From contig MHCJ01000003.1 in assembly GCA_001816585.1 (NCBI GenBank), positions 426,971 to 490,970 on the forward strand: a DNA stretch of 64,000 nt. The letters are read 5' to 3'. The notes beneath the pieces were generated by a model. The model was not told the origin of the DNA. It saw nothing but the letters and a program-made list of their open reading frames with translations, and did no database searches. Below, piece after piece: positions 26,195-51,352 of the stretch. The translations under genes were made by a program, and so were the position numbers. Position 1 is the stretch's first letter, and the number at the start of each line of letters is the position of its first letter. Source of the stretch: Candidatus Chisholmbacteria bacterium RIFCSPHIGHO2_01_FULL_52_32. Its GTDB lineage: Bacteria > Patescibacteriota > Microgenomatia > UBA1400 > Chisholmbacteraceae.

Positions 26195-27385
26195 TTAGGA
26201 TACCCTCCCATCGGATATTGATGTAAGCATGTTTTCCACCTGATCGGTAATATGATCCCAGGTGTATCGCTTTTGAACCAGTATTCGTCCGTTGGTTCGA
26301 TGCTTTTGGTACAGCGCGGCATCCGTAAGAATGCGCTCCATTGCTTTGGCCGCCTCCTTTGGGCGGTCCGGTTCAACGAGGAGTCCGGTTTCCCCGTCAT
26401 TGATAAAATCCGTGATGCCGCCAATCGGAGTTGCGATGACCGGAAGCCCAATTGCCATTGCCTCCAAGAACGATACGCCAAAACCTTCCTTCCGTGAAAG
26501 CCTGATAAACAGATCGGCACCTGCAAGGAGTTGCGGAATTTTCCGATTTTCTACTCTCCCAAGAAGCTTGACCTTTTGCTCCAATTTGTACTTTGAGATT
26601 TGTAATTTGAGATTGTTATAGAGTGGTCCGTCCCCCGCGATGACGAGTTCCCAGTTGAGCGAGGATGGAAGCAAATAAACCGCATCAATCAGCGTGTCTA
26701 GGCCATTTCTCGGTATCAAAGCGGATGTGGTTATAATCCTTACCCTTCTCTTAACTTTTAACTTTTCACTTTTCACTTCCTCGACCTGAGCTCGGTACGA
26801 AGGTTTGAACTTTGTCGTGTCCACTCCGTTGGGAATGATAACCGACCGTCTTGCACCGAGTTTGTCCGCCTGTTCCTTCGCATACCGACTAACACAGGCA
26901 ACGACATCGGCCCGCTTGAGCGCAAAAGACACTAAAGGAGTGAGCAGGTTCGGGAGTAGATTCTTAAACGGAATCAGGCCTTTCATCACCAACTCTTCCT
27001 TGTAGTCGAGGGGATTCTGGGCCGTCATATAGAGCGGCCTTTTCAAGTGCCCGGCAAGGATGGCCGCCACGACCCCTTGAGGGAATACCTGCTTTGCCCA
27101 GACGAGATCAATGCTCTTGCCCCGGAGTACTCTCTTGATTTGGATGGGAGCAAACATGATATAGGAAAGTCCATAGAGATTGGGGATTTCCGGAAATTTG
27201 ATGGGGTGGATCGTTACGTTATGCGGAAACGTTTTTGCAATTTCGGTGGAATGACCAACAAAGACATCGAATGTGTGATCTCTCTCCGCTAACCGTTTGA
27301 TCAGCTCAACTACATGAACCTCAGCTCCACCAAGCCGTTCAGGGAGAAGATCAGCAGCAACCACAGCAATATGCATACTTTGCAT
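26195..27385 (-). CDS. Glycosyltransferase family 4
   Basis: HIAVVAADLLPERLGGAEVHV; C-terminal EGFGVSFLEAMAIGLPVIATPIGGITDFI. Confidence 0.8.
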   Translation of the reverse strand: MQSMHIAVVAADLLPERLGGAEVHVVELIKRLAERDHTFDVFVGHSTEIAKTFPHNVTIHPIKFPEIPNLYGLSYIMFAPIQIKRVLRGKSIDLVWAKQVFPQGVVAAILAGHLKRPLYMTAQNPLDYKEELVMKGLIPFKNLLPNLLTPLVSFALKRADVVACVSRYAKEQADKLGARRSVIIPNGVDTTKFKPSYRAQVEEVKSEKLKVKRRVRIITTSALIPRNGLDTLIDAVYLLPSSLNWELVIAGDGPLYNNLKLQISKYKLEQKVKLLGRVENRKIPQLLAGADLFIRLSRKEGFGVSFLEAMAIGLPVIATPIGGITDFINDGETGLLVEPDRPKEAAKAMERILTDAALYQKHRTNGRILVQKRYTWDHITDQVENMLTSISDGRVS

Positions 27386-27416: not shown

Positions 27417-27590
27417 CTATTCTTCCTTGAAGTCTTTGGGGAGCATGATGGGGATGCCGTCTTTCACTTCAAAAACGCGTTTGCACTTTACGCACTTGAG
27501 ACTTTCTTTCTTCCCCTTTTTCGTGTACTTGATATCTCCGTGATCATCGGGACAAGCAAGAATCTCCAAAAGCGTTTTATCGAGCGGCAT
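27417..27590 (-). CDS. Trm112/YcaR-like (DUF343) small zinc-ribbon protein, 57 aa, absent from the ORF track
   Basis: My own translation of the minus strand gives MPLDKTLLEILACPDDHGDIKYTKKGKKESLKCVKCKRVFEVKDGIPIMLPKDFKEE. This is the classic LLeiLaCP....C..C...ypi.dGIPvmL Trm112 pattern. ATG at 27590 and TAG at 27417. It overlaps the upstream GT4 stop by 14 nt. Confidence 0.6.
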   Translation of the reverse strand: MPLDKTLLEILACPDDHGDIKYTKKGKKESLKCVKCKRVFEVKDGIPIMLPKDFKEE

Positions 27591-28590
27591 TGATGACCTC
27601 CTTATACACTTTCAAGGTTGCCTCGGCAGCTTTCTGCCAAGTATAGTTCTTCTTTACCAGATTGTATCCTGCCTCCCCCATCTTCGCAAGGTTGGGATTG
27701 GTATAGGCCTTGACGATCGCCTGGCTCAAGGCTTGGATATCGCCTGGCGGGACAAGGTATCCGTTCAAGCCATCCTTCACCATCTTCGCGTTATCCCCGA
27801 CATCGGTTACGATGACAGGAAGTCTTGCTGCCCAGGCTTCGAGCAGGGTTAACGGCATTCCCTCAGAAAGGGATGGGAGAACATAGACCGATGAAGAGAG
27901 ATACTCTCGGATGATTTTCTTCCTGTCGAGTTCTTGCGTAATCTTTACGAGTTCGATATCCGGACACTTTTGACGCACGCTCTCCATTGCCGCGTCTAAT
28001 ATGTCATGGCCCTTCAGCGGTTCATTTCTGCCGACAAACAAGAGTGTAAACTGAGGTTTCTTTGCAATCTGACTATCATGAAACGTTCGGGTATCGACTC
28101 CGTTGGGAATGTATGCGATGTGCCGATTAACATTTTCGTACGTTCGGAAATGCTGAGATACGGATATTTCGCGATCGTAGCGGATTCCGGTGAGTAACCA
28201 TTTTTCAAGTCTGTACTTCCACCAGGGTATTCTTCCGCCGAGTTTCCTCTGTTGGGCTTCGAGGATTTGCATATCGAGCATGTTACTGCCGTGCACCGTA
28301 TACACGACGGGGATGCGAAGTATCATTGAGAGTACTTTCCCAGGGAAGCCGGCAGCATACGCATGGGCATGGATGAGATCAATTTTTTCCTTTCTGTGAT
28401 CCACAATCACCTGTGGTATCACCAATAATGACCAAATCGCACGAGCAGGTAATGATGGTTGAGGGGCATGATAAATCGTAAACGTGCAGTCCTTCGAAAG
28501 ACTGTTGGTGATTCTCAGGACGTGCTCCTGCCCTCCTCCATGGAAGGGGAACCATGCATCAATGAGAATCGCGATCCTAAATTTCTTCAT
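27577..28590 (-). CDS. Glycosyltransferase family 4
   Basis: RIAILIDAWFPFHGGGQEHV; C-terminal SEGMPLTLLEAWAARLPVIVTDVGDN. Confidence 0.8.
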   Translation of the reverse strand: MKKFRIAILIDAWFPFHGGGQEHVLRITNSLSKDCTFTIYHAPQPSLPARAIWSLLVIPQVIVDHRKEKIDLIHAHAYAAGFPGKVLSMILRIPVVYTVHGSNMLDMQILEAQQRKLGGRIPWWKYRLEKWLLTGIRYDREISVSQHFRTYENVNRHIAYIPNGVDTRTFHDSQIAKKPQFTLLFVGRNEPLKGHDILDAAMESVRQKCPDIELVKITQELDRKKIIREYLSSSVYVLPSLSEGMPLTLLEAWAARLPVIVTDVGDNAKMVKDGLNGYLVPPGDIQALSQAIVKAYTNPNLAKMGEAGYNLVKKNYTWQKAAEATLKVYKEVINAAR

Positions 28591-29270
28591 GAATGTTTTT
28601 TGCGCACCCGCACGGTCGAAAAGGCACCGATGCTAGGAAATACTTTCCCGAGTATTCGGCCTATCTTTGGAGAGAACGGATAGAGGCTCACCGTGCTTGA
28701 CTGCTGGATGGTGAAACCATGAAACTCGAGAAATTCCAGGAACGCAGTATGCGTGAAGACGCTTTTGTGTCCATGGACCGGATTCTTCTCACCCTTTAAG
28801 AAATTGCCAAACTGGACATTTGCAGGATGGAGACAAATAGGCAGCTGGCCGAACAGGAGCTGTATTCGGTAATGAAGAGCAGCGAGGTTTGTCGTTGAAA
28901 TCACAAGCTGGCCGTTTCGTTTGAGTACTCGTTTGGCTTCTTCGATGAATGTATCTGTATCAACGAGATGTTCGATGATTTGGTTTGCGCTGATCGTATC
29001 GAAGAACTCATCTCCGAAAGGTATTTTATTATTCAGGTTACCAACATTGACTCTCACTCCCTGTCTCTTCGCAGCGAGGGCCTTTGTCTCGCTGAGTTCA
29101 ATACCGTACATCACCTCCGCATTGGCCTTTTCCGCAACCTTCGCGGTGAACTCACCGTTTCCGCATCCCAAATCAAGGAGAGATCCCTTAAGCGGTAGCG
29201 TATATTCAAGAAATACTCGTTTGTTTTCTCTATCTCCTTGTCCGCAAAAATGATCGACAAGCTGCTGCAT
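28587..29270 (-). CDS. Class I SAM-dependent methyltransferase
   Basis: LLDLGCGNGEF, ANQIIEHL and LKRNGQLVISTTN. Confidence 0.8.
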   Translation of the reverse strand: MQQLVDHFCGQGDRENKRVFLEYTLPLKGSLLDLGCGNGEFTAKVAEKANAEVMYGIELSETKALAAKRQGVRVNVGNLNNKIPFGDEFFDTISANQIIEHLVDTDTFIEEAKRVLKRNGQLVISTTNLAALHYRIQLLFGQLPICLHPANVQFGNFLKGEKNPVHGHKSVFTHTAFLEFLEFHGFTIQQSSTVSLYPFSPKIGRILGKVFPSIGAFSTVRVRKKHS

Positions 29271-29311
29271 GAGAGTGATGTGAATGTTTTTTGGTGAACT
29301 GTCCTATTCGT

Positions 29312-30337
29312 CTATATCATGGAGCTCTGTGCGTGCGATGTTGTCATCCATTGATGCAGGTTATTTAGGCCCCGACCGATTGGTGTTGTAGGTTTCCAAC
29401 CGAAGTCCTGCCCAGCCATTGAGTAATCCGTGATGTAGACCCGTTGATCTCCCGGTCGCCACTGTGAAAATCTGATCTTTGCCACAGCCTTGCATTCCCG
29501 CTCAAGCAGAGGGAGGAGCTCGATCAAACTCACGGAGTATCGGCGGCCGCCGCCGATGTTGTACACGCGGCCGGACGTTTTTGAGATCTTGGCAATCGCC
29601 CGGACATAGCAATCAACCAGGTCACGGACATAGAGAAGATCACGGACCTGTTTCCCGTCACCGTAAATCGTGATGGTTTTTCCTCTGAGGAGCTTACGCA
29701 TGAAATGAGCTACCCAGCCCTGGTCTGCGTTGCCGAACTGGAAGTCGCCATAGATGCAGCTTTGCCGGAACACGAGCGTTCTGAGGCCATAGATACGGGC
29801 ATAATCGTGTACGTACTGGTCCCCGGCTCCTTTGCTGCAGCCGTAGGGTGAATGAAAGTCGAGCTGAAAGTCTTCCTTAATCCCCCGTCGCAAACGCCGA
29901 TCTGCAAAATCGTATCTTGTCTTTTTCTTAATAATATAAGCGTTTTCCATGCCTCCGTACACCTTATTCGTCGACGCGTATACCATAATCGGAGGATTTT
30001 TTTGCGCTCTTGCCGCTTCCAAAACATTGAGCGTTCCGAGAGCGTTTATTTCAAAATCCGTACGGGGATCCGCGACCGAGCTCGTGACGGCAACTTGAGA
30101 AGCCATATGAAATAGGAGATCGGTTCCTTCTATCTTTCTCTTTAGCGTCTCGAAGTCCCTGATATCCGCTTTGTGGAAGACTACCTTCGGATGTGTTTTT
30201 TTCAGCCATGCGAGATTCTTCTCAACACCAGGACGGGAGAGGTTATCGTACACATCCGTCTCAATGCCCTGCTTGAGATAGTAATCGGCAATGTTTGTGC
30301 CGATGAACCCAGCACCACCAGTTATCAATATCTTCAT
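29312..30337 (-). CDS. NAD-dependent SDR epimerase, CDP-paratose 2-epimerase (tyvelose epimerase)-like
   Basis: MKILITGGAGFIG; YDNLSRPGVEKNLAWL; ASTNKVYGG; LDFHSPYGCSKGAGDQY. As I recall, these are near-identical to RfbE/tyvelose-epimerase blocks. Confidence 0.7.
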   Translation of the reverse strand: MKILITGGAGFIGTNIADYYLKQGIETDVYDNLSRPGVEKNLAWLKKTHPKVVFHKADIRDFETLKRKIEGTDLLFHMASQVAVTSSVADPRTDFEINALGTLNVLEAARAQKNPPIMVYASTNKVYGGMENAYIIKKKTRYDFADRRLRRGIKEDFQLDFHSPYGCSKGAGDQYVHDYARIYGLRTLVFRQSCIYGDFQFGNADQGWVAHFMRKLLRGKTITIYGDGKQVRDLLYVRDLVDCYVRAIAKISKTSGRVYNIGGGRRYSVSLIELLPLLERECKAVAKIRFSQWRPGDQRVYITDYSMAGQDFGWKPTTPIGRGLNNLHQWMTTSHAQSSMI

Positions 30338-30375
30338 ATAGTAAATTGCCGACCTGGTAACTTTAATGATACTTC

Positions 30376-30444
30376 TTAATTAAACACTACAAACGGTTGT
30401 TGGTGCTGGGCGAAACCAGCGCCGCCGGTGATAAGAACTTTCAT
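30376..30444 (-). pseudogene. 5' remnant of a second NAD-dependent epimerase gene (22-codon ORF MKVLITGGAGFAQHQQPFVVFN*)
   Basis: A GC-rich Rossmann N-terminus MKVLITGGAGF is followed by a premature stop. It sits 38 nt upstream of, and out of frame with, the intact epimerase start. Its codon usage differs from the intact gene. Confidence 0.5.
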
Positions 30445-30484
30445 GAATTACGAATTATGAATAATGAATTATGAATTAAGAATA
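30443..30484. repeat. Heptanucleotide tandem array (ATGAATT-like) x6, immediately upstream of the epimerase-fragment ATG
   Basis: atgaatt acgaatt atgaata atgaatt atgaatt aagaata. Confidence 0.8.
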
Positions 30485-30500
30485 AGATCGATATAAGTGC

Positions 30501-31595
30501 TCAAGATTTAAAATTGCGGATTGCTTCAGTGTACACTTGTTCCGTTTCCCTGGCTATTATAGCCCAATCGAACCGCTTTGCGAGCAGTTGACCTTCTTTT
30601 TTCTTTTGATTGTAGAGCGTTTGGTTTGTGAACAGGATATTTAGCTTTTCTGCAAGATCCCGTATCTCCTGGGGCAAAAACAATAGTCCACCTTTTCCGT
30701 TCCCGGTGATTTCTTCTGTTGCCGGGATACGTGCATTGACATACGGTACGCCTGTTGCCAAGGCTTCAACCGTGGCTATCCCGAATCCTTCAACGAGGGA
30801 TGGCAGGCAGAACAAGTGAGACCTGTGCAGCGTTTTTGTGACATCCGGGTACGGTAAATTACCAAGAAGTTTTACATCCTTTGCTAGTTTGCGATTGGTA
30901 ATTTGTGATTTGAGATTTTTTCCTTCCGGACCTTCTCCGATAATGAGGCACTGAATACCGGGGATCTTTCTTTTTAGGATTGCAATCGCCTCAATAAGAT
31001 CTGCGATCCTTTTATACGGAAGGAGCCTTGCGATCGTACAAACGGTTGGCCTTAGGAACTTCTTGACGTTCAACGCTTTGAGCTTCCCGTATTCCACCCC
31101 TCCGTAGATGACGGTGATTCTTTCCGGAGGGATCCCCAGGGCAATCAGCTTTTTTTGTGTAACCTGGCTCATCGCAATCCAATGGTTCCAGGGTAACTTC
31201 AGCCCGGTAACTTCCATTACCCTACCGGCAATGGCGACAGGGAGCGGAAAATAATCCGTCCAATATTTTCCTAAGACGTCGGGGACCCAAGCGACCGCCG
31301 GCAAACCGAGGCGCTTTGCCAAAAGGAATGCCGGGAAATAGGTTGTGACATTTGAGGCTTCGATCAGATCCGGCCTTTTTTTTGGCTTTATTAAGATAAT
31401 GCGGATCAAAGAGGCAAGACGGGGGAACATGGATAGTGTGGTTGCCGCGATCGAGCCCCTGTTCAGGCTGACCACTTCCACATTGTGTTTTTCCGATAAG
31501 TACTTCGCGACAAAATAATTTCGGGCTTGTACACCACCAACAATCGTTGGCTGGGCTCCGTCGGGATAGAATTCATTAACAAGGAGAATATTCAA
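30501..31595 (-). CDS. Glycosyltransferase family 4
   Basis: C-terminal VEGFGIATVEALATGVPYVNARIPATEEI. TTG start (MNILLVNEFYPDG). Confidence 0.75.
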   Translation of the reverse strand: MNILLVNEFYPDGAQPTIVGGVQARNYFVAKYLSEKHNVEVVSLNRGSIAATTLSMFPRLASLIRIILIKPKKRPDLIEASNVTTYFPAFLLAKRLGLPAVAWVPDVLGKYWTDYFPLPVAIAGRVMEVTGLKLPWNHWIAMSQVTQKKLIALGIPPERITVIYGGVEYGKLKALNVKKFLRPTVCTIARLLPYKRIADLIEAIAILKRKIPGIQCLIIGEGPEGKNLKSQITNRKLAKDVKLLGNLPYPDVTKTLHRSHLFCLPSLVEGFGIATVEALATGVPYVNARIPATEEITGNGKGGLLFLPQEIRDLAEKLNILFTNQTLYNQKKKEGQLLAKRFDWAIIARETEQVYTEAIRNFKS

Positions 31596-31604
31596 AATAG
31601 CAGA

Positions 31605-31639
31605 ATGTTCAATGTTAAATGTGCGATGTTTAATGTTTG
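31605..31639. repeat. Heptanucleotide tandem array (ATGTTNN) x5 in the 5' region of the GT4 gene 30501..31595
   Basis: atgttca atgttaa atgtgcg atgttta atgtttg. Confidence 0.75.
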
Positions 31640-31656
31640 AGCGTAATCGTTCAGAT

Positions 31657-32013
31657 TTATTTCTTTTTTTTTGATCGTTTTTCTCCTTCGAGCGCGATTT
31701 TTCTCACCAACTCCGTGATCTGGTGCCGCACATTCTCCAAAATTACGTTGGTACGGTACACAAGGTAAAACAACAACACGAGCGAAGCATAGATGACGAC
31801 ATCTGCTCCTCTGCCTATTCCGAGAACGCGTGCGATACTGGTCGTGAACTGTGGATTTAAGCTTCCAAGTGCTGCCAATCCCCAAATCAATGACCAAAAG
31901 AGAAACGTCCCGATATTGATTGTTCTCTCACGAAAACGCAGCCAGACTCTCGAGAAAGCAAAGAGAATAAAGATGAGCAAAAATACCTGGACTGGAATCA
32001 GTAATATTTGCAT
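31657..32013 (-). CDS. DUF2304-like small 4-TM membrane protein (GT2-associated)
   Basis: 118 aa with four hydrophobic helices and a Lys-rich tail, directly downstream of a GtrB-like GT2. This is the typical DUF2304 context. Confidence 0.45.
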   Translation of the reverse strand: MQILLIPVQVFLLIFILFAFSRVWLRFRERTINIGTFLFWSLIWGLAALGSLNPQFTTSIARVLGIGRGADVVIYASLVLLFYLVYRTNVILENVRHQITELVRKIALEGEKRSKKKK

Positions 32014-32026
32014 ACTTTATGACTCA

Positions 32027-32710
32027 CTAGCGGGCAAGCTTCAGGAGTAGTCTACCTAAAATACCGAAGGCGTTCAAATTGGACTGCCCCTTCTTCCGTG
32101 AATAAGAAGTGTAGATGACATGGATCGGAACCTCCGTAAGCTGCAAACTAAGGCGATTTATCTCCGAGAAAAATTCCGATGAGGCTTCCATTTCCTGTGT
32201 CTTGAGAGAAATTTGACGAATCGCTGGTTTTGAGAATGCCCGAAATCCTGACTGCGAATCCGATGTACTAACCGAAAAGAGGAGCTTTGTTATGACGTTA
32301 CCAAACCAAAGGATTATCCGGCGGTCGAACGGGATTTGTTGCATTCCTTTTAACGTCCGGGAGCCGATCACCACGTCCGCATCTCCCTTTCGAATCGGCT
32401 CGATCACCCGTCTGATGTCTCCCGGGTCATGCTGACCGTCCGCGTCAAAGGTCACCGCGATGTCTGCATTTACCAGTTTTGCGTAGGTAAGTCCTGTCCC
32501 CAATGCTCCGCCCAACCCACGATTAATGGGGTGGGAGAGAATCTTTGCGCCAGCAGTCATTGCCTCCTTCGCTGTGGCGTCTACCGAGCCGTCATCGACC
32601 ACAACGATTTCGACCTCGCCTAATGATGCAATCTCTTTCTTCAATGCAACAAGTACCTTTCGAATGACCGGCGCCTCGTTGAATGCGGGGACGATAATCA
32701 CTAGCTTCAT
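32027..32710 (-). CDS. Polyprenyl-phosphate sugar synthase, GT2 (GtrB/DPM1-like)
   Basis: 227 aa. IIVPAFNEAPVI...VVVDDGSVDAT...VTFDADGQHDP...VVIGSR. Confidence 0.75.
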   Translation of the reverse strand: MKLVIIVPAFNEAPVIRKVLVALKKEIASLGEVEIVVVDDGSVDATAKEAMTAGAKILSHPINRGLGGALGTGLTYAKLVNADIAVTFDADGQHDPGDIRRVIEPIRKGDADVVIGSRTLKGMQQIPFDRRIILWFGNVITKLLFSVSTSDSQSGFRAFSKPAIRQISLKTQEMEASSEFFSEINRLSLQLTEVPIHVIYTSYSRKKGQSNLNAFGILGRLLLKLAR

Positions 32711-33630
32711 CGTCCTCTCTTAAAAAATTCCGCTGTTTTTTCTAACCCATTTCGGAGTTCTGTTCTTGGTTGCCAGCCGAACTCCTTCAGCGCCTTTTTG
32801 CTATCCAGGCTGCTTCGTCGTTGTTCCCCCTTTTTTACCGGCCCGTAGAGGGGCTTTACGGTTGGGGCGAGTTGTTTTCGCAGTTCGTCGAAAATGGTGG
32901 TAACATCCGTTTCTTTTCCGGTGCCGATGTTGTTGATCCCTTTTGCCTTTTGGGAGAGTGCCTTTGCATTCGCTTCTACGACATCTTCCACAAAGACAAA
33001 GTCCCGTGTTTGTTTGCCGTCACCACTTATTACCGGCTGTTCCCCGCTGAGGAGCCTCCCGGAAAAGATGGCAATCACCCCCGCCTCCCCCTTCGGATTT
33101 TGCCGCGGTCCATAGACATTTCCGTAGCGAAGGCTGACAAACGGTATGCCATGGACCTCTTGATAGTAGTGGAGATAGTGCTCGCAGGTTAACTTCGCAA
33201 CGCCGTAGGGTGAGATCGGCCATGCCGGATAATTTTCCGGAGTCGGAATTATGCTTGCATCTCCGTAGATCGCACCACCGGTTGAAGCGAAGATCACTTT
33301 TTTGACCGATTTTACCTGTCGGGCTCCCTCCATCAGGTTCAACAATCCAAGAATATTGATTTCAGCGTCCCAAAGAGGTTCTTCAACCGATCTGCGAAGA
33401 TCGATTTGTGCGGCGTGGTGGTTGATGATCTCGGGTTTTTCCGCAACGACGAGGTTGAAGGCATCTTTGGACCGAATATCGAGTTTGAGAAATTTTACTT
33501 TACGGTTTAGATTTGCTTCCGATCCGGTCGAGAGGTCATCGATGACAAGAACTTGATGGCCATCAGTAATGTAGCGATCAACGATGTGCGAACCGATGAA
33601 TCCGGCACCGCCGGTAACTAAAATTTTCAT
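32707..33630 (-). CDS. NAD-dependent SDR nucleotide-sugar epimerase (GalE/WbpP-like)
   Basis: MKILVTGGAGFIGSH (ATG at 33630), catalytic YGVAKLTCE, and NVYGPRQNPKGEAGVIAIF. Confidence 0.75.
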   Translation of the reverse strand: MKILVTGGAGFIGSHIVDRYITDGHQVLVIDDLSTGSEANLNRKVKFLKLDIRSKDAFNLVVAEKPEIINHHAAQIDLRRSVEEPLWDAEINILGLLNLMEGARQVKSVKKVIFASTGGAIYGDASIIPTPENYPAWPISPYGVAKLTCEHYLHYYQEVHGIPFVSLRYGNVYGPRQNPKGEAGVIAIFSGRLLSGEQPVISGDGKQTRDFVFVEDVVEANAKALSQKAKGINNIGTGKETDVTTIFDELRKQLAPTVKPLYGPVKKGEQRRSSLDSKKALKEFGWQPRTELRNGLEKTAEFFKRGR

Positions 33631-33682
33631 GAATGATGAACTAAAAAATTTAAGAACCAACTATTTTTTCGTCTGTAGCTGA

Positions 33683-36790: not shown

Positions 36791-36796
36791 AAGAGA

Positions 36797-36826
36797 ATGA
36801 TTAATGATTAATGGTTAATGATTAAT
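36797..36826. repeat. Heptanucleotide tandem array (ATGATTA) x4, spanning the stop of GT2 36815..37615 and the 5' UTR of GT4 35732..36790
   Basis: atgatta atgatta atggtta atgatta. On the coding strand it reads (TAATCAT)n, giving TAA in all three frames, followed by TCTCTT-ATG. Confidence 0.8.
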
Positions 36827-39395: not shown

Positions 39396-40148
39396 TTAGA
39401 CGGGTTTAAATAGCCTACTTTTCGTGATCCCGTATTTATGGAGGAGATATTGCCCGAGGACCATGAAGCTTTCCGAGAGAAATTTCGCTCCTGCAAGAAG
39501 CCCGATCGATGAGGATTCCTCATAATAACGGACCGGAATCGGCGCTTCTCCGATGTTCAATCCGTATGAGATTGCAGAAACCGTGAATTGCTGGTCGAAG
39601 ATGAAATCGTTTGAGAATCGCTGGAATGGCACTGTCTTGAGGGTTTTTCGGCTATACGCCCGCATTCCGCTCATGTGCTCTGAGAAATTAACACCGAGGA
39701 TAATATTCGCGATAAGTGAATAGAGGCGGTTAAAAACGTACTTCAATTGCGGCATCCCGCCGGCCAAGGCCTCCGTTCTCGTCCGTATACGAGAGCCGAA
39801 CATGTAATCGTAGCGCTTCTGAATGATCGGTCGGACCAGTTCCGGAATGAGACTGGCGTCGTACTGGTAATCGGGATGGATCATGACTACGATATCCGGG
39901 TTTCTCTTGAGCGCCTCCCAGTAGCAGGTTTTTTGATTGCCGCCGTATCCGAGATTATTCGGATGGACAAATGTTGTGATTCCCAATTTTTTTGAAAGCT
40001 CGACGGTTTTATCTCTTGAGACATCGTCGACCAAGATGATCTCACTGACCCAATCTTTCGGGATGTCGTCGTAGGTCTTCTTTAACGTCTTTTCGGCGTT
40101 ATACGCCGGCATGACGACGATGATGGTTGGCTTGGAAACTTTGTTCAT
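39396..40148 (-). CDS. Polyprenyl-phosphate sugar synthase, GT2 (DPM1-like)
   Basis: IIVVMPAYNAEKTL...ILVDDVSRDKT...MIHPDYQYD. Confidence 0.7.
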   Translation of the reverse strand: MNKVSKPTIIVVMPAYNAEKTLKKTYDDIPKDWVSEIILVDDVSRDKTVELSKKLGITTFVHPNNLGYGGNQKTCYWEALKRNPDIVVMIHPDYQYDASLIPELVRPIIQKRYDYMFGSRIRTRTEALAGGMPQLKYVFNRLYSLIANIILGVNFSEHMSGMRAYSRKTLKTVPFQRFSNDFIFDQQFTVSAISYGLNIGEAPIPVRYYEESSSIGLLAGAKFLSESFMVLGQYLLHKYGITKSRLFKPV

Positions 40149-41776
40149 GTTCTTGTCAGCACAAAGGCGGTCTGGCCGTTCCGAAACTTTACCGTGTCAA
40201 GTACCGTGGCATCAGATGGGATTTCGTCCGGTGCTCCGATGATGAGCGTTCTCGGCAGTTGGCTATCCTTGGCATATTCTACCTTACGGAAGCGGTATTT
40301 TCCAAATCCCGCGGCTCCGCTTTCTGCAACCGATTGATAGTAGCTCGGATCGGTCTTGTCATAGAAAAGAAAAAAGATATAGGGTTGATCGTACCTCTGG
40401 GTCACAATTACCGTCTCCGCGTCGTCCCCAAGGCTGGTGACTATCTCGACCATCTCTTTGTACCCATACTGCCAGTCATGCGAGCGTTCGATGGGGGTGT
40501 GAATGTAATAGAGGTTCAGGTAGTAGACAAAATTAATACATACCAATAAACCAATAAATACCGATACATACCGATTTTTCTTGAGAATTCTCAATGCATG
40601 AATTATTCCGTAGGCGGTGATGATTTGAAGCACCGGGAGCATAAGCAGAGCCCGAACTGCGTGGGGAGCTTGGGTCGTAAGCGCAGAAGCAAGCGGAGCC
40701 ACCGCAAGCCAGGGAAAAATGAGTTTCATACCCGACCACTTATCTTTAATCATCGTATACAGCCCATACAGTAAAAATGGGAATTCCCATAGATACAAAA
40801 GCCCCATTCCCACCGCGCTATGCCTGCCGATCCCGTCACCACGCAAAAATAGGAAATCGAAGTTGAAATGCTTAAGGTATCCTTCGACGATGATCGTGGT
40901 AAAGACCAACGAACGCTGATGGAAAGGAGCAAAGATTGAGCCTCGGTCGCTGTCCTCTGTCCGATACTCTGCTTGGCGCTCGAGACGTTCCTGTTCCTGC
41001 GTATAGATTCCGGGGTTGGTGAAGACGCTTACAACGCTAAATCGTGCTTGGGCTGAGCCACGGATGAAGGTGAGGGCTATCGGTACCATCAGAAAAAGAC
41101 CCACGATAAACCCAAGGCCAATCTCCTTCCATCTTTGAACCAGCAGTTTTCTGAAAATCAGTGCCATAAGAAGAATGAATGCCGGAACGACCGCTCTCGC
41201 TGAGTGATAGGTGTACATCGTCGAGGCAAATGCAATGCTTGAACCAAACAGGAAGACGGCCTTGGCTGAACGGAGCCATTTGAGAAAGAGATACATCGCG
41301 AGGGTGAAAAAGAAGAGCGCGAGATTGGCTTCAAACGCCACGCGAGAAAATTGGAGGTGCCAGGGCGAAATCGCAAGGAGCAGCGCCGCCAGGGCGGCGA
41401 TTGCTATATTGTTAAATTGTTTTATTGTTTTATTGATCGTGAATAATTCTTTGACGAGGAAGTAGGTCACTAAAACTGTGAGGATGCCGGCAAGAGCGGA
41501 AGGAAAGCGAACGGCAAATTCTGTCAGGCCGAAGACCGCAATCGAAGAGACAGCAGCGTACGTATAGAGCGGCGGCTTGTAGTCGTTGAAGGAACGGATC
41601 GCAATGGGAAAGCTATTTCCGTATTCGTCTTTTCCGGTTTTCAAAATGGAGTAGGCGTTATAGCCTATCGACGCCTCATCCCAATCGAGGCTGGGGGGGT
41701 TTTGTCCGAGCTGGTATAACCGTAAAGCAGCCGCGACAAGAAGGATCGTCAGGAGCACTGCCGTTTTTCTCTTCAT
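40145..41776 (-). CDS. GT-C glycosyltransferase, ArnT/PMT-like (GT39-type), paralog A
   Basis: LDWDEASIGYNAYSIL DE-loop, FAVRFPSALAG, LLLAISPWHLQFSR. A C7 tract encodes the NPP near the 5' end. Confidence 0.65.
   Translation of the reverse strand: MKRKTAVLLTILLVAAALRLYQLGQNPPSLDWDEASIGYNAYSILKTGKDEYGNSFPIAIRSFNDYKPPLYTYAAVSSIAVFGLTEFAVRFPSALAGILTVLVTYFLVKELFTINKTIKQFNNIAIAALAALLLAISPWHLQFSRVAFEANLALFFFTLAMYLFLKWLRSAKAVFLFGSSIAFASTMYTYHSARAVVPAFILLMALIFRKLLVQRWKEIGLGFIVGLFLMVPIALTFIRGSAQARFSVVSVFTNPGIYTQEQERLERQAEYRTEDSDRGSIFAPFHQRSLVFTTIIVEGYLKHFNFDFLFLRGDGIGRHSAVGMGLLYLWEFPFLLYGLYTMIKDKWSGMKLIFPWLAVAPLASALTTQAPHAVRALLMLPVLQIITAYGIIHALRILKKNRYVSVFIGLLVCINFVYYLNLYYIHTPIERSHDWQYGYKEMVEIVTSLGDDAETVIVTQRYDQPYIFFLFYDKTDPSYYQSVAESGAAGFGKYRFRKVEYAKDSQLPRTLIIGAPDEIPSDATVLDTVKFRNGQTAFVLTRT
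41364..41470. repeat. 107-nt segment about 98% identical to 47373..47479 (inter-paralog gene-conversion tract), copy 1
   Basis: My manual alignment shows 2 mismatches in 107 nt. The flanks drop to about 80-85% identity. Confidence 0.8.
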
Positions 41777-43323
41777 CGTGGGTTGGAAAGCGGGTACACC
41801 CGAAACAAATACATGAAGCGGTTGCTCTTCCCTTTCTGATATTTCTTTATTAATTCGATATTCTCTTGGGGAGGAATTTGCTCGGGATACGATTCGTAAT
41901 ACACGAAGTAGGCGGGCTTTTTGGCAGCCATCGCACTCACCTCCTGAGGCACTTCCGTTACCGGCCAGAAGCCATGAATTTCAATATTGGGATTGTCCCA
42001 AAGGTAGAGTTCGAAGCTATAGGGCATGAGGCCAAATGTCCCCTGGGTTCCAAGAAAAATCTGCTTGTCTTTGGCTTCTTGTTTCAAGAATGCGATCACA
42101 TCGTCGATCCCCCACCCGGCGGGGAAACCATCAACGTATTGATCGCGGTCGGCCTGAATAATCGGCGCGTTCACCGGATCCGTGAGAACTTTTATGTCCA
42201 GAACCACCGCTGCTATCGTAAGAAAGAGGGCAAAGATCAGTTTTGGCTCGTTCCGTTTGACCGCAGAGAGGATTCGGTCCGTCGCAAGCGATGCTGCTAT
42301 GAGGAGGGGCGGGGTGATAAAGAGCAGATACCGCGCAAAAATCACCTTTCCGAAGGCTGCGGCAACAAGAAAAGGAAGCATTGCATGGATCAAAAGGAAG
42401 ACTAACCCTCTGGCATATTTGCGCAAGGAAAACGGATAGGTTTCGGGCAAGAGGACAAGACAAAAGCCCACGATTGCCGTTGTCATGACCGGCCAGGTCA
42501 ACCAGCCGACCCACCAGCGCCAAAGGCTCGGGAGGTTCCCCCAAAACCATCTCGTAGGATGTCCGAAAAATTCTCCGATGGTCGTGACGAACTCCAGGTT
42601 TTTTCGTCCGATCATGTGCATCCAGGGAGAGAGACGCATGATGTTTCGCATCGCTTCGGCTATGGCAAATGTTGGAACTGTAAGGAGGGCCCAGCGGACG
42701 ATATTTCTTTTTTCTCTTCCGGCAAAGAGGAGATTCAGCGGATAGAGATACTGAAAAAAAGCAGCCGGTGACTTTGTGAGAAGGCCTGCTCCCATGGCGA
42801 AACCGGTAAGCATTGCGTTGTCGAGCTTAAGGCTCTTTGCCGTTTTTACACCAAAATACAGCGTCCAGATTCCCCACATGGAGAGCATGGAATCGACCAA
42901 CGCAATCCGATCGTAAAATAGGGTGAATGGCGTGAGGAGGTAGAGGGCACTCGCCGTGAAGGCTGCGTTCTTGTTTTGAAAAAGCTCTTTTGTCAGAAAC
43001 CAGATCCCGACCGCTGCACCAAGACCGGACAGCGCGGAAACGGCCCTTCCGGCGATAAGCGGATCAGAAATAATCTTCATCGCAGCTATGGTAAACCAGT
43101 GCCAGAGCGGTTGTTTTCCGTCGGTCAACGGGATAAATCGGAGGGAGGCATCATGCAGGGCAATTTGACTCCAACGCGTATAGATGGCTTCGTCCGTGAA
43201 GATCGGCCATAACCGAAGATTCGTCAGCCTGGTTGTTAAATAAACTATCATCAGACCAGCCAGAATCCTGATTTCTCTGAGTGATACCAGGAACGGTCTT
43301 TTGATTTTTTGCGGTGTTTTCAT
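41773..43323 (-). CDS. GT-C glycosyltransferase, ArnT/PMT-like, divergent paralog
   Basis: IFTDEAIYTRW DE-loop; multi-TM. Confidence 0.55.
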   Translation of the reverse strand: MKTPQKIKRPFLVSLREIRILAGLMIVYLTTRLTNLRLWPIFTDEAIYTRWSQIALHDASLRFIPLTDGKQPLWHWFTIAAMKIISDPLIAGRAVSALSGLGAAVGIWFLTKELFQNKNAAFTASALYLLTPFTLFYDRIALVDSMLSMWGIWTLYFGVKTAKSLKLDNAMLTGFAMGAGLLTKSPAAFFQYLYPLNLLFAGREKRNIVRWALLTVPTFAIAEAMRNIMRLSPWMHMIGRKNLEFVTTIGEFFGHPTRWFWGNLPSLWRWWVGWLTWPVMTTAIVGFCLVLLPETYPFSLRKYARGLVFLLIHAMLPFLVAAAFGKVIFARYLLFITPPLLIAASLATDRILSAVKRNEPKLIFALFLTIAAVVLDIKVLTDPVNAPIIQADRDQYVDGFPAGWGIDDVIAFLKQEAKDKQIFLGTQGTFGLMPYSFELYLWDNPNIEIHGFWPVTEVPQEVSAMAAKKPAYFVYYESYPEQIPPQENIELIKKYQKGKSNRFMYLFRVYPLSNPR

Positions 43324-43363
43324 GGTTTAGGTTTCTGTTCCTCTATGAGGGCAAAATAACTTT

Positions 43364-44806
43364 TTACTGCCTTTCAGTATACCATCTCTGAGGGATCACC
43401 CCGAGAATAAGCGGCGGGAGAGCGATCGTTGCGAGCATCGCGATTTGCCAAAAGAAGTTCAGGGGGTAGAGATAGAAGGAGGCGAAGAGAACCGCATAAT
43501 AGAGAAGGCTCGTATAGGAAGACAAGAGAACAACCGCCTGGAGACGACCTCTCGGAAGAATGGCAGCAAACGGCAGTATCCAGGCAAGATACCATGGTTG
43601 AAGCATCGGGGAAACCAGTACGAGATAGAGAAGTATGATGACAACCATTCCTGCGATGACCCCCGTCCTTCGGATACGGCTTAGGGCGCCGGTCAACAGC
43701 AGAAGGAATGGGGGAATGGTCACCAACTTCTCTGCCCATACCGCTTGTCCCTTCTCAAATCCCATTTTAAGAAACATAAATCGTACAGCGGTGGGGAACG
43801 AGCGGAGGTAGAGTTCGAGTTGAACGCCGAGATTTCCGATGAAACCCCTCAGACCCTCCCCCAGGCTTAAGAACCCCCCGAGTGTCATAAGCGAAAACCA
43901 GGAGAGGAATCTTACAGCATCTCTTCGCTTCCCTTGCAGGAAAAGCCACCACCCAAAAATCGGCACAAAAAGGATCGCGACAACCTTGGCAAGAACCGCA
44001 AGGGCAAGGGCAGCCGCAGCGATCATCAGCCGTCCTTCGAAAAACCAATAGAATCCCAACAGCGAGAAAAACGCCATCACCATATCGTTATGGGCATTTC
44101 CGACAATCTCTATATGGATAAGTGGATTCCAGGCAAAGAGGGCAAGACCGTAGAGGAAGTTGTCCGGACTGTATTTTTGAAACCACTTTTTTAAAAGCAC
44201 GATTGTGGCCAATGTAAAAATCCCTCCCATGAACTTGAAACCAATTACATTCATGAGGAGGTCATCTTTTGCGAACACGTGGATCAATGAAGATGTGAGA
44301 AACTGCACCGGCCCGTACACCGAGGCACGAAACTTCCAGGATCCTAAATAGATAAACGGATCTTGGGGGAAGTTTTGCGGGGGCTCGATCCAGGGGTTTG
44401 CGTGGTGGACAAAAAGAACCCTGTTTGAAGCGATGTAATCAAAGACATCGGTTGAGAGCGCCGGAAACGAAAGAAATGTTGTTATTAGGAATGCGGCCGC
44501 ATATCGAAGAACAATCTTTGATGACGTCGATTGTCCTGATGATTGGTTCCGCAATAACCGCAGCGCTTTGGCGTACACCACGAACATCGCCGTAACCGTG
44601 AGGAAATATAGCAAGGTTGGGATGCTGTTGACGTGAAGCAATTTTGCCAGTTCTCTCCCCTTCTCCAGGAAACCGGGGGAGTCGGTCAGGAACGCGATGC
44701 GCTCGAGCAAAAAATCATCGCGCAGGAAGATGAGGTAGCTTACAACAGCGTATACCGCATAGAGAACTGCCAGAGTGATTCCGTATCGCTTAAGTTCTTT
44801 TCCCAT
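43364..44806 (-). CDS. Polytopic membrane protein, DUF2029/PimE(GT87)-like putative GT-C mannosyltransferase
   Basis: LSTDVFDYIASNRVLFVHHANPW loop; paralogous to the downstream gene. I chose the internal ATG (MGKELKRYGITLAV) at 44806 because the track start at 44890 would overlap its neighbour by 101 nt. Confidence 0.45.
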   Translation of the reverse strand: MGKELKRYGITLAVLYAVYAVVSYLIFLRDDFLLERIAFLTDSPGFLEKGRELAKLLHVNSIPTLLYFLTVTAMFVVYAKALRLLRNQSSGQSTSSKIVLRYAAAFLITTFLSFPALSTDVFDYIASNRVLFVHHANPWIEPPQNFPQDPFIYLGSWKFRASVYGPVQFLTSSLIHVFAKDDLLMNVIGFKFMGGIFTLATIVLLKKWFQKYSPDNFLYGLALFAWNPLIHIEIVGNAHNDMVMAFFSLLGFYWFFEGRLMIAAAALALAVLAKVVAILFVPIFGWWLFLQGKRRDAVRFLSWFSLMTLGGFLSLGEGLRGFIGNLGVQLELYLRSFPTAVRFMFLKMGFEKGQAVWAEKLVTIPPFLLLLTGALSRIRRTGVIAGMVVIILLYLVLVSPMLQPWYLAWILPFAAILPRGRLQAVVLLSSYTSLLYYAVLFASFYLYPLNFFWQIAMLATIALPPLILGVIPQRWYTERQ

Positions 44807-47791: not shown

Positions 47792-47808
47792 GGTTGTCTA
47801 TTAATCTC

Positions 47809-48165
47809 CTACTTCAGCATCTTTTGGAGTTCGAACAGAAAGACCAGCGGGTAGAGCGCGATGATTAAGTAAAGTACGTTCCATGCTTTTCCTCCCCTTT
47901 TGGCGATGAAGTAGAGGACTGCAAGGAAAGCGATCGCGCCCAGAGGACTTAATACCTCACCTAAGAACTTCGGCGAAAGGTAGTGGAAGTAGCAGCGGGC
48001 GTAATTGAGGAAGAAAAACACCGGTTTGTTGTGCAAAACCCGTGTGAGCCATAAGGGAGTACCGCTTGGTCCATCCGTCGTAATTGCTTCCCAGATTTGG
48101 AGAGGGACATCGGTGGTAATTGCCACATGCGTGCAGAACAATCCTTCCATAGTTATATCTCCCAA
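47809..48165 (-). CDS. Small hypothetical membrane protein
   Basis: 118 aa with two or three hydrophobic helices, embedded in the paralog array. No recognisable motif. Confidence 0.3.
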   Translation of the reverse strand: MGDITMEGLFCTHVAITTDVPLQIWEAITTDGPSGTPLWLTRVLHNKPVFFFLNYARCYFHYLSPKFLGEVLSPLGAIAFLAVLYFIAKRGGKAWNVLYLIIALYPLVFLFELQKMLK

Positions 48166-49688
48166 ATGTTAAATACCGTATCGCCATTTACCATTTTTAT
48201 CTGTTCGTAACCGGTCTTTTCGTCCGGCTTCTGCCAGAATGGCGCGATAATTAGGGCTCGTTTCCCAGTTTTGGCAATCTCCCAAGCGTATTGGAAGTAC
48301 TTCACTTTCCCCATCTCTTTTGCGGGGTTCGAGAGTTTGTGATAATCCGAAGGCTCAACGGGAAGGTAAAACGCAACGTAAAGTGGTGGTAGTGCATCGC
48401 TCACAAATATTTCGTCGTATGCGTCCCATCGCTTTGCAATTATCTCCACCGTTTCTTTTATTCCGTCTTGCCAATCGAGGGCTGTCTCCCGCGGATAATG
48501 GATGTAGTACTGATGGATGTACAACAGGATGTTGTAACCAACTGCCAGAGCGAGTACACCCAGTACCAAAATTCTGGTTGCCTCCCGTTTTTGACGGTTG
48601 ATTACCTTCAGTACCCCTACGGCTCCGATTGCCGTTATGATCTCCCACGCCGGAAGCATGTTCAAAGTACGGATCGCATGGGGATTGATGTTTGAGAGGG
48701 AAACCGATACGGGAGCAAGGAGAAGCCAGGCAAATACCATGTTTCTTCCGTTCCCTTTTCCTTTGATCAGGGTCCGGAGGCCGAGAAGAACCAGCGGCAG
48801 TTCAAATACATAGAGCATTCCAAGCTTTCTTACACTGTGCCTTCCATTTTGATCACCTCTGAAAAAGAGAAATGTGGTATCGAAATTTGCGAGATAATTT
48901 TCAAACACTTTGGGGAAGAGCTTTTCTTTTCCGATGATGCTTTCGGAATACGCACGGATGACCGCTTCTCCCGAAATGATCGACGGGACAAAGGGAAGAC
49001 TTAAGATCACACCCGTTACGACAGCGGTGGCAAGATCCCTTTTTGCTTTCATTACATTCTTCCTGCAAATCCAGACCAAAGCCAGGAGTATAAGGGGTGC
49101 AAACAAGCGTGTGCTGATATACGTAGCTGCGGAGAGTAAGAACAAGATGACAGAAACGGTTAACCACATCCCATGTTTACGAAGTGATACAAGAAATGCG
49201 TACCACCCTGCAACAAGGAAGAACAAGGCGAGGTTCGCCTCAAAGCCTCCCCGAGAAAATTGGAGATGCCATGGCGAAATCGCAAGAAGCAGTGCAGCTA
49301 CTGCCGCAATGGCTGATGGCTGATGGCTGATGGCTGATGGCTTTTTTTCAAACAGTTCAACGACGAGGAAGTACATCAGAAGAACCGTGAGGGTGCCGGC
49401 AAGGGCGGAGGGGAAACGGACGGCAAAATCCGATCTGCCAAGGAGCTTTACACTGATGGCTGCTATGTAAATATAGCCCGGATATTTGTAGTCTCCAAAA
49501 GCCCGAAAACTTACCGGTAAACTTTTTCCATATTGGTCCTTTCCCGTTTGCGCAATGGAGTATGCGTTATACCCGATCGAAATCTCATCCCAGTAGAGCC
49601 CGGGTGGCATTACGGCAAGATTGTAAAACCTTAAGACTCCGGCCAGGATCGTGATTAAGCTTAAGAGGAGGATCGTTTTCGCTTTCAT
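48153..49688 (-). CDS. GT-C glycosyltransferase, ArnT/PMT-like (GT39-type), paralog G
   Basis: LYWDEISIGYNAYSIA. The loop insert KKPSAISHQPSAISHQPSAI is encoded by (GCTGATG)4. Confidence 0.65.
   Translation of the reverse strand: MKAKTILLLSLITILAGVLRFYNLAVMPPGLYWDEISIGYNAYSIAQTGKDQYGKSLPVSFRAFGDYKYPGYIYIAAISVKLLGRSDFAVRFPSALAGTLTVLLMYFLVVELFEKKPSAISHQPSAIAAVAALLLAISPWHLQFSRGGFEANLALFFLVAGWYAFLVSLRKHGMWLTVSVILFLLSAATYISTRLFAPLILLALVWICRKNVMKAKRDLATAVVTGVILSLPFVPSIISGEAVIRAYSESIIGKEKLFPKVFENYLANFDTTFLFFRGDQNGRHSVRKLGMLYVFELPLVLLGLRTLIKGKGNGRNMVFAWLLLAPVSVSLSNINPHAIRTLNMLPAWEIITAIGAVGVLKVINRQKREATRILVLGVLALAVGYNILLYIHQYYIHYPRETALDWQDGIKETVEIIAKRWDAYDEIFVSDALPPLYVAFYLPVEPSDYHKLSNPAKEMGKVKYFQYAWEIAKTGKRALIIAPFWQKPDEKTGYEQIKMVNGDTVFNIWEI
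49307..49343 (-). repeat. Intragenic heptanucleotide tandem repeat (GCTGATG)4 plus a degenerate flank, next to a T7/A7 tract
   Basis: Read directly: gcaatg gctgatg gctgatg gctgatg gctgatg gct ttttttt. It encodes SAISHQP repeats in paralog G. Confidence 0.85.
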
Positions 49689-51352
49689 CTTTTCATGATT
49701 GAAACTGTCGGTTCACCGTTTGGAAGTCTAATGACCTTCAGCGCTTCATCCCTTTGTGATTTGGGCGTCTGTGCATAGAGATCAACAAGCAGCACCGGAG
49801 TTTCCGATGGACCTTCGCTGTAATTGATAGGTTGAAATAGAAACTTCCCGAATTTATTTTTGGTTTCCAGAAATCCTCCGGAAACCGTACCTCCGTCGAT
49901 ATTTATGTACGTCCACGGATCGTATTTTGTGTAGAACGCGAAGAAGTTCTGCGGTTGTCGGAGGTTGGTGGAAACGATCACTTTCGAGTTTTCGTCTTTA
50001 TGAAGATCAGCGTACTCCGCCGCCTCTTTATATCCATACTGCCAACTTTCCGCAAACTCAAGCGGCCCATGGACATAGTACTGATGGAGATAGTGATATA
50101 CGCTTCCGGCAACGAGTACGGCCGAAAGCATGAAGGTGACTATGCGCAAACCCTTCCTCATTTTCTTAACTGCGGCAAGAGCGGTAAGGACGCCGACTGC
50201 CGAGAAAATTTGCAGTGTCGGCAACGCTACGGTCATCCTTACTGAGCTTGGGATATCCCACGTCAGTGCCGAGGCAACCGGCGACAAAAGAAACCAACCG
50301 AGGAGAATTCCGAATGGCCGGCGGTCCTTGAGATGTGCCATTTTGCAGAGTCCGAGAAGAATAAGCGGCAATTCACCAAGGTAGAGGAGACCGACGTTCG
50401 GCGCATGATTGTACGGCATCCCTTTCGTTCCTAAGAATAAAAGGTCTGGTTGAAAGTGCTTTAGATAGCCGTCGCTAACCGTCAGAAATCCGGCGAAGTA
50501 TCGGTTGTGCAGGAACTTCACCCCCAGCCAGTCTTGTCTTTGAGCATCAACTACTCTCCTTCCTGTTTCTTTCTCAACAAGTCCCGGGTGCTCGAAGACG
50601 CTGGTTCCCTTAAATCGCATGAGCCCTGCTTGGGAAAATAGAATTGGGGAAAGCGGAAGGCTGAGGATTAAGAAAGCGAATGCCGCAATGCAGGCATCTC
50701 GCCTTTTTAGCCAAATGGTTTTCCCGTAAATTCCGGCAAGGGCGACCAAAAAGAGCGGAATAAAAAGCCTCGAAGTTTGATAGGTGTACAAAGAGAGGCT
50801 GAAGCTTGCCGCCGTGCCTATCCACCAACGGCCGTTTCCTCGAATACCTTTGAGAAATGTCCAGACGCCTAAAACGGTTAGGAATACCGCGATGTTGGTT
50901 TCAAATGCAACACGGGAGACCTGAAGGTGCCATGGCGAAATTGCGAGGAGAAGTGCGGCGATTTCGCCAACTGAAAACTGAAAACTGAAAACTGACAACT
51001 TTAGCCTCGGGAAAAGTTCCCTCACAAGAAAATAGGTCAAGAGGACCGTGAGAGTGCCGGCAAGGGCGGAGGGAAAGCGGACGGCAAATGGATTGAGGCC
51101 GGAGGCTGCAATTGAGGGAACCGAGAGGTAAATATACAGGGGCGGTTTGTAATCGTCGTGGGAGCGAAAGACGAGCGGCAAGCGCTTCCCATACTCATCC
51201 ATTCCCGTTTTGAGAATTGAGTAGGCGTTATAGCCGATCGCGACTTCATCGAGGTTCAGGCTTGGAGGATTTTTTCCGAGTTGATAGAATCGCAGCACCG
51301 CGGCGAGCGTGACTATAGCTGCTAGGGTAAATCCTGTTCGCATTTCCCTCAC
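49685..51352 (-). CDS. GT-C glycosyltransferase, ArnT/PMT-like (GT39-type), paralog H
   Basis: LNLDEVAIGYNAYSIL. The loop insert LKLSVFSFQFSV is encoded by (AACTGAA)3-4. Confidence 0.65.
   Translation of the reverse strand: MREMRTGFTLAAIVTLAAVLRFYQLGKNPPSLNLDEVAIGYNAYSILKTGMDEYGKRLPLVFRSHDDYKPPLYIYLSVPSIAASGLNPFAVRFPSALAGTLTVLLTYFLVRELFPRLKLSVFSFQFSVGEIAALLLAISPWHLQVSRVAFETNIAVFLTVLGVWTFLKGIRGNGRWWIGTAASFSLSLYTYQTSRLFIPLFLVALAGIYGKTIWLKRRDACIAAFAFLILSLPLSPILFSQAGLMRFKGTSVFEHPGLVEKETGRRVVDAQRQDWLGVKFLHNRYFAGFLTVSDGYLKHFQPDLLFLGTKGMPYNHAPNVGLLYLGELPLILLGLCKMAHLKDRRPFGILLGWFLLSPVASALTWDIPSSVRMTVALPTLQIFSAVGVLTALAAVKKMRKGLRIVTFMLSAVLVAGSVYHYLHQYYVHGPLEFAESWQYGYKEAAEYADLHKDENSKVIVSTNLRQPQNFFAFYTKYDPWTYINIDGGTVSGGFLETKNKFGKFLFQPINYSEGPSETPVLLVDLYAQTPKSQRDEALKVIRLPNGEPTVSIMKR
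50969..50996 (-). repeat. Intragenic heptanucleotide tandem repeat (AACTGAA)3 plus a degenerate unit
   Basis: aactgaa aactgaa aactgaa aactgac. It encodes SVFSFQFSV in paralog H. Confidence 0.8.

Follow-up and report, generated by a model that had tools for sequence, protein, structure and literature searches.

Directly upstream of an intact sugar-nucleotide epimerase gene in a glycosylation cluster of Candidatus Chisholmbacteria lie the first 11 codons of an epimerase gene. We consider it probable, at roughly 70%, that this relic, itself without function, is a scar left where diverged alleles of one orthologous epimerase slot were joined by illegitimate recombination. The organism is an uncultured bacterium from groundwater and belongs to the Candidate Phyla Radiation (CPR). 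The window, by which we mean the whole 64-kb stretch of DNA that was analysed, lies on a 1.16-Mb Candidatus Chisholmbacteria contig that comes from a previously described data set of the Rifle aquifer (PMC5079060). The features at the junction are encoded on the minus strand. The upstream gene encodes a GT4 glycosyltransferase (30501..31595) and is the last gene of a left-hand phylogenetic block. It is followed by a native, AT-rich intergenic region of 56 nt (30445..30500), which extends from the GT4 stop codon to the relic ATG and is comparable in size to the gap found in three of the relatives. A heptamer tandem array, located by a tandem-repeat scan (30443..30483), runs into that ATG. The relic itself (30412..30444) encodes MKVLITGGAGF, with the TGxxGxxG Rossmann motif, and is separated by a 74-nt spacer (30338..30411), for which no match was found anywhere searched, from an intact gene (29312..30337) for an extended-SDR sugar-nucleotide epimerase of 341 aa that resembles CDP-tyvelose/paratose 2-epimerases. 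A class I methyltransferase gene (28587..29270) lies downstream of the epimerase as part of a right-hand block.

A short reading frame encodes the start of an epimerase

The relic was recognized within an open reading frame at 30376..30444 on the minus strand that reads MKVLITGGAGFAQHQQPFVVFN before its stop, and whose 22 codons comprise the relic and 11 unrelated codons, closed by TAA. The sequence-only reading had described this frame as the Rossmann N-terminus of an SDR epimerase, out of frame with the intact gene and preceded by a heptamer array, and all of these observations were borne out. The relic ATG at 30444 and the intact ATG at 30337 are 107 nt apart on the same strand and in different frames, the stop codon of the short frame falls 38 nt before the intact ATG, and the period-7 array overlaps the relic ATG. 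In a six-frame translation of the window the Rossmann-start pattern occurred three times, the other two occurrences being real gene starts, and it occurred in none of 200 randomisations; therefore, the motif in the relic is not a product of chance. Both copies carry the N-terminal TGxxGxxG of PF01370, the relic encoding ITGGAGF and the intact gene ITGGAGFIG. Since the relic amounts to 11 of approximately 340 codons, lacking the full domain of about 240 residues and the catalytic YxxxK, it could not encode an enzyme.

Comparison of the relic with the 5' end of the intact gene revealed 23 shared bases out of 33. Of the 10 differences, eight are synonymous and the remaining two fall within one Ile/Val codon. 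We simulated 10 random substitutions and found that the family consensus peptide was left intact in only 1 of 100,000 trials (P = 1e-5), indicating that the two starts diverged inside working genes. On this evidence the relic was severed from a gene that was still working, and is not a local duplicate that drifted. The latter origin would involve tandem duplication of the 5' end in situ, through slippage or unequal crossing-over, after which the upstream copy decayed neutrally, and it would account for two copies of an 11-codon motif 107 nt apart on the same strand. However, random drift would not be expected to confine every difference to synonymous or conservative positions, and a tandem duplicate should be followed by sequence like that upstream of the relic, which the spacer is not. 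Moreover, there is no decay within the 33 nt of the relic, after which all homology is abruptly lost. We therefore regard local duplication as decidedly improbable.

The 5' end nearest to the relic was that of the syntenic gene of a sister species, with 28 of 33 bases shared. Since genes from unrelated phyla reach 27 of 33 bases, a sequence of 33 nt is too short for phylogenetic placement, and the suggestion that the fragment came from a different kind of epimerase could not be upheld on so few bases. A paralogous epimerase gene within the window (32707..33660) was considered as the source and rejected, as it shares 25 of 33 bases with the relic and is no closer than unrelated genes.

The interval is identical in six contigs

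A duplicated start of this kind might also be produced by an assembly chimera formed at a conserved motif common to co-existing strains. The motif is indeed conserved, and related Chisholmbacteria populations are present in the same metagenome sample (JGI 3300002502). However, six contigs in the JGI, NCBI and ENA collections, one of them 1.16 Mb long, agree at every base of the intergenic region. Agreement among six contigs from three collections makes an assembly chimera very unlikely, and we give it next to no weight. An exact-protein look-up of the epimerase returned only near-identical contigs of the same population, which carry the same intergenic region and thus provide no comparative information.

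Homology to epimerase genes ends sharply after codon 11

The similarity of the relic to epimerase genes ends sharply after its codon 11. Local alignment of the spacer to seven epimerase genes, over their whole length and over their first 120 nt, gave p > 0.2 in all cases, and for this reason a 9/11 match noticed by eye between the spacer and the codons after the box was dismissed. Searches of the 74-nt spacer by BLASTN-short, BLASTX and TBLASTX against the window, the fetched loci and their proteins yielded nothing above chance; a match to the C-terminal part of an epimerase (E = 3) was discarded because of a stop codon within it. No exact match to 21-25-mers of the spacer turned up in viral_contigs or in the metagenome_contigs collection, from which the window's own population is apparently missing as well. 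The spacer is also unlike the array region upstream of the relic and is not heptamer-like. Presumably, it is upstream sequence that belongs with the intact gene. A retained start, an unrelated spacer and a second start together call for a join made without homology. The sequence-only reading had instead invoked recombination at the conserved N-terminal box; a homologous crossover there would be expected to yield a clean chimera, whereas a duplicated start and 74 nt devoid of epimerase homology are present.

The intact gene is the ordinary ortholog of its clade

The intact gene starts at 30337 with MKILITGGAGFIG and encodes a protein that matches PF01370 over profile positions 1-240 of 240 (E 5e-50), with YGCSK readable in its sequence. 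The nearest solved structures are the CDP-tyvelose 2-epimerases 9rl0 (E 1.3e-88) and 1orr (E 2.6e-85), aligned over residues 1-331, and the source annotations name the gene as a CDP-paratose 2-epimerase. An NCBIfam search gave no equivalog model at its cut-off, and a domain search of the window identified no CDP-sugar pathway genes near the epimerase. We therefore describe the product as CDP-tyvelose/paratose 2-epimerase-like, a predicted assignment.

In a search of 5.8 billion proteins, the closest match to the intact epimerase outside its own population was the syntenic protein of the sister species (77%); further proteins of this small clade were 61-79% identical. Against the syntenic genes of related lineages, which are introduced below, protein identity was 77% for L091, 70% for L094, 67% for L087, 66% for L089 and 53% for L088. 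With the exception of L088, these values equal or exceed those of the neighbouring genes in the same comparisons. Compared with the eleven closest homologues found, the first 90 residues show 70-77% identity; for the residues after 90, identity is 78-83% with the sister group and 61-67% with the remaining homologues. Judged by these identities, the intact gene is the clade's ordinary ortholog at its slot. Base composition gave a similar picture. GC and GC3 are 0.504 and 0.579 for the whole intact gene, slightly above the means of the 44 open reading frames in the window (0.483, sd 0.025, and 0.538, sd 0.044), so the gene is not AT-rich and bears no compositional mark of foreignness. The relic's 33 nt have a GC of 0.52 and a GC3 of 0.55, compared with 0.42 and 0.45 for the first 33 nt of the intact gene, a contrast that amounts to 3 bases.

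These results bear on the proposal of the sequence-only reading that a resident epimerase had been replaced by a horizontally acquired, AT-richer one through homologous crossover in the N-terminal box, with the array possibly at the junction. The position of the relic at the native start (see below) and the fact that the locus does recombine are in keeping with a replacement. Nevertheless, the compositional contrast on which the proposal was built shrinks to 3 of 33 bases, the gene is no outlier among its neighbours, and an allele 77% identical to the sister species' syntenic gene is the clade's own ortholog and not a foreign acquisition. In addition, a crossover in the box would leave neither a duplicate start nor a 74-nt unrelated spacer, and the array lies upstream of the relic, away from the break. 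The proposal further assumes that the relic is the resident copy, whereas the reverse polarity is equally possible. Taken as a whole, replacement by this route appears quite improbable. A search with the N-terminal 95 residues for a donor of the 5' end returned only short fragments of at most 59% identity. A scan of species-representative genomes returned only relatives of at most 56% identity, mostly Chloroflexota, with no useful synteny. Neither a donor nor a scar-free allele was found in the relatives, protein searches, or metagenome and viral collections searched.

The relic lies where relatives start their epimerase gene

In order to compare gene order, the upstream GT4 protein and the epimerase protein were used as queries, and contigs encoding homologues were fetched. 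This provided five syntenic lineages, consisting of L090-L093 with L096 and L097, which belong to Candidatus Chisholmbacteria RIFCSPLOWO2_01_FULL_49_14, the sister species; L094 with L095; L087; L088; and L089. In all five the orthologous epimerase is the next gene after GT4; the distance between the two is 41-57 nt in L087, L088 and L089, 91 nt in L094, 146 nt in L095 and 164 nt in L090. Since the relic ATG stands 56 nt after the GT4 stop codon and adjoins a repeat array, as the epimerase ATG does in most relatives, the relic marks the native epimerase start. Thus a full-length homologous gene, which the sequence-only reading had proposed to seek in related genomes, does exist at the position of the relic, although no donor was identified. 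In every relative examined (L087-L097), the relic, a second ATG and spacer-like sequence are absent. Downstream of the epimerase, the methyltransferase gene (28587..29270) is found only in the sister species among the five relatives with a complete gene after the epimerase, and it is 81% identical to the L091 gene, the highest value in the cluster. In L094 and L087 the epimerase is followed directly by a GT4 gene, without the methyltransferase; in L088 the gene that follows the epimerase is truncated after 126 residues by the end of the contig.

The short frame might alternatively be a functional upstream open reading frame or leader peptide, its 22 codons being translated to tune epimerase expression through, for instance, attenuation or reinitiation. 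Its ATG directly follows the native upstream region and its stop codon lies 38 nt before the real ATG, an arrangement suited to such a role. It is also probably transcribed, as no terminator is predicted between the GT4 and epimerase genes; a search of the minus strand for a terminator-like hairpin in this interval found none. However, the short frame is absent from every relative examined, so that the test of conservation fails for this alternative, which the sequence-only reading had itself raised. The leader RNA did not fold better than shuffled sequence (z 0.08), no attenuator-like terminator was present, and an Rfam search gave no family near threshold (best E-value 0.61). Moreover, the first half of the peptide is simply the enzyme's cofactor-binding motif. 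No sigma-70-like promoter was found in 29200..31800. Shine-Dalgarno motifs occur at 8 of 41 gene starts in the window and are absent at both the relic and the intact ATGs; given the rarity of the motif, this absence is uninformative. We consider a dedicated regulatory function unlikely, while an incidental effect of the relic frame on epimerase expression may occur.

The locus is a mosaic of diverged blocks

Relationships among three related populations were examined gene by gene. Between L091 and L094, protein identity on the left-hand side is 92% for DUF2304 and 83% for GT4; on the right-hand side it is 72% for the epimerase, 55% for GT4b and 60% for GT4c. Between the window and L091 the identities are 56-65% for five genes on the left, where the upstream GT4 (30501..31595) stands at 56%, and 77%, 81%, 68%, 79% and 71% on the right. 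Breakpoints were then placed by sliding windows over codon alignments. Nucleotide identity between L091 and L094 is 86-92% for start positions at epimerase codons 1-41 and drops to 78% for codon 61 and 69% for codon 81. From about codon 100, the window and L091 are 70-88% identical, with values of 78-88% up to about codon 300. Further switches were seen downstream. Over the last approximately 90 codons of GT4b (27577-28590), the window is 84-87% identical to L094 and 72-78% identical to L091, and over codons of about 260-300 of GT4c (26195-27385), L091 and L094 are 93-95% identical.

The intergenic region upstream of the epimerase shows comparable behaviour. L094 and L095 encode the same epimerase protein, and L094 (1881-1950) lacks 55 nt of the repeat-rich intergenic region of L095. 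L090 (5925-6059) and L095 (2225-2359) have in common about 90 identical bases of intergenic repeat DNA before the epimerase, while the genes that flank this stretch are only 83% and 72% identical in protein. It seems from these alignments that the epimerase-upstream intergenic region itself moves between populations. Taken together, the identity switches, the indel and the common intergenic DNA argue for frequent exchange of gene pieces, with this intergenic region as one tract end, and the locus can be demonstrated from sequence comparison to be a recombination mosaic with breakpoints at this junction. Discordant histories at the junction are clear for the locus, and an event in L091 alone could account for them; for the first 80 or so codons, import of L094-like sequence into L091 is by itself enough to explain the discordance between the window and L091.

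Direct repeats precede the epimerase gene in most relatives

The array next to the relic (30443..30483) has a period of 7, with 5.9 copies and 85% matches, and reads ATGAATT on the plus strand and AATTCAT on the gene strand. AT-rich direct repeats stand directly before the orthologous ATG in four of the five lineages, L088 being the exception. The gaps of L090, L094 and L095 hold heptamer arrays, as in L094, where the sequence is (AAGATTT)3(AAACATT)4 AGCAATT AGACATT AAAAATT TCT ATG, and those of L087 and L089 hold direct repeats of 14-15 nt. As relatives carry repeats before the same ATG, the array in the window belongs to the native upstream region. It stands on the far side of the relic, and its proposed placement at the recombination junction is not supported. 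Array copy number does not vary among the six contigs of the window's population, and L094 and L095 differ by the single 55-nt indel in their homologous intergenic region, which is not a multiple of 7.

Arrays of 3-7 copies are strikingly common in the Chisholmbacteria clade, and 11 of the 29 tandem-repeat rows of the window have a period of 7. Besides the one before the relic, those in the window include 26584-26614, 26751-26778, 31604-31637, 36796-36826, 47252-47271, 49309-49342, 50969-51000 and 54627-54663. Period-7 arrays were likewise seen in L090 (298-337, 2609-2642, 4691-4716 and 5905-5997) and L094 (630-752, 1881-1950 and 8335-8441), and relatives carry different heptamers at the same positions. 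Several arrays end a few bases from start codons, among them 31604-31637, at the TTG start of the GT4 gene, and 36796-36826, at an ATG at 36790. Others (49309-49342, 50969-51000, 54627-54663, 26584-26614 and 26751-26778) lie inside long open reading frames. A perfect (AGCCATC)x4.9 array is located about 127 codons into the frame 48153..49688, and the adjacent paralog, 49685..51352, has an (AGTTTTC)x4.6 array at the corresponding position. Eight tandem frames of 456-555 aa, apparently paralogs, occupy 40145-52977 on the minus strand. Intragenic heptamer arrays could act as on/off switches, as gain or loss of 7 nt shifts the frame, or the starts of these frames could have been mis-set. The array at 54627-54663 on the minus strand, CATAATTCATAATTCATTATTCATTGTTC, is nearly the same as the one before the relic, from which it is 24 kb distant, and the two have the 18-mer TCATAATTCATTATTCAT in common.

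A broader and more speculative idea is that the AT-rich heptamer arrays found immediately before many genes of this glycosylation cluster are promoter-proximal elements and also preferred break-and-join sites, shuffling glycan-gene alleles among co-existing CPR populations, so that the relic is a footprint of this process and its reading frame could dampen epimerase expression. We regard this idea as rather unlikely. A literature search found no paper on heptanucleotide repeats in the Candidate Phyla Radiation.

A model for the origin of the relic

In the reading that we favour, an illegitimate recombination scar, two diverged alleles of the same epimerase slot would have been joined. The left unit would consist of the GT4 glycosyltransferase gene, the AT-rich heptamer array and the first 11 epimerase codons, and the right unit of 74 nt of its own upstream sequence, the complete epimerase gene and the downstream genes. 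A join made directly after codon 11 would be illegitimate and would for that reason leave a duplicated start behind. Two polarities are equally possible. Either the right unit was incoming and the resident start was left behind, or the left unit was incoming with its 11 codons and landed 74 nt upstream of the resident gene. Expression of the intact gene would now depend on transcription entering from the GT4 gene or the array region, and the relic frame would lie in the leader, where it is likely transcribed. It may be translated into a 22-residue peptide without a role, and we infer that the relic has no function. The event is deduced from one lineage. That the fragment is a recombination scar, the central claim of the sequence-only reading, is the part that our analysis sustains: it lies at the epimerase start of relatives, none of which has such a relic, its differences from the intact gene are synonymous or conservative, and the locus is a mosaic.

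Comparison with known systems

In homology-facilitated illegitimate recombination, incoming DNA is homologous at one end and illegitimately joined at the other (PMC3240628). The junction described here resembles the products of that process, as a non-homologous join after codon 11 together with homologous resolution somewhere downstream would leave a duplicated start. The likeness is one of outcome only. With respect to the enzyme family, the relic has the N-terminal TGGAGF cofactor-binding motif of CDP-tyvelose (CDP-paratose) 2-epimerases such as 1orr and 9rl0, to which the intact gene aligns over its full length. Unlike those enzymes, the relic comprises just 11 of about 340 codons, and the likeness of the intact enzyme is one of sequence.

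Repeats of 7 bp are found upstream of the hmw adhesin genes of Haemophilus influenzae, and STRR heptamers are found in cyanobacteria. The arrays of the window and its relatives are similar in that 4-7 copies of a 7-nt unit lie directly upstream of gene starts in a surface-glycan locus. However, copy number is constant in the six contigs, the sole polymorphism, between L094 and L095, is the 55-nt indel, and no promoter was located here. Many heptamer arrays before and inside genes are the more unusual feature of this clade. Taken alone, the relic is a minor pseudogene remnant of which no function is expected; it is useful because it marks an illegitimate recombination junction in a cell-surface glycosylation cluster. 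Combined with the block-wise identity switches in three related populations, of which two come from the same aquifer, the relic shows that these bacteria, with their tiny genomes, exchange pieces of glycan genes, with breakpoints both inside genes and at repeat-rich intergenic regions. These observations bear on the origin of surface diversity in the Candidate Phyla Radiation and reveal no new kind of element.

Truncated gene remnants at cassette boundaries are familiar from the O-antigen rfb/wb clusters and the capsule cps loci. As in those systems, a short truncated piece of a sugar-pathway gene lies between blocks of different history, inside a cluster of glycosyltransferases and sugar-nucleotide enzymes, and is absent from related strains. 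In contrast to those systems, the alleles here are orthologs of one slot in one clade and not different serotype-specific genes, the host is a CPR bacterium, and neither a mobile element nor a known recombination hotspot sequence is involved. The relic is thus a new instance of a cassette-boundary remnant, situated in a CPR glycosylation cluster and between alleles of a single slot.
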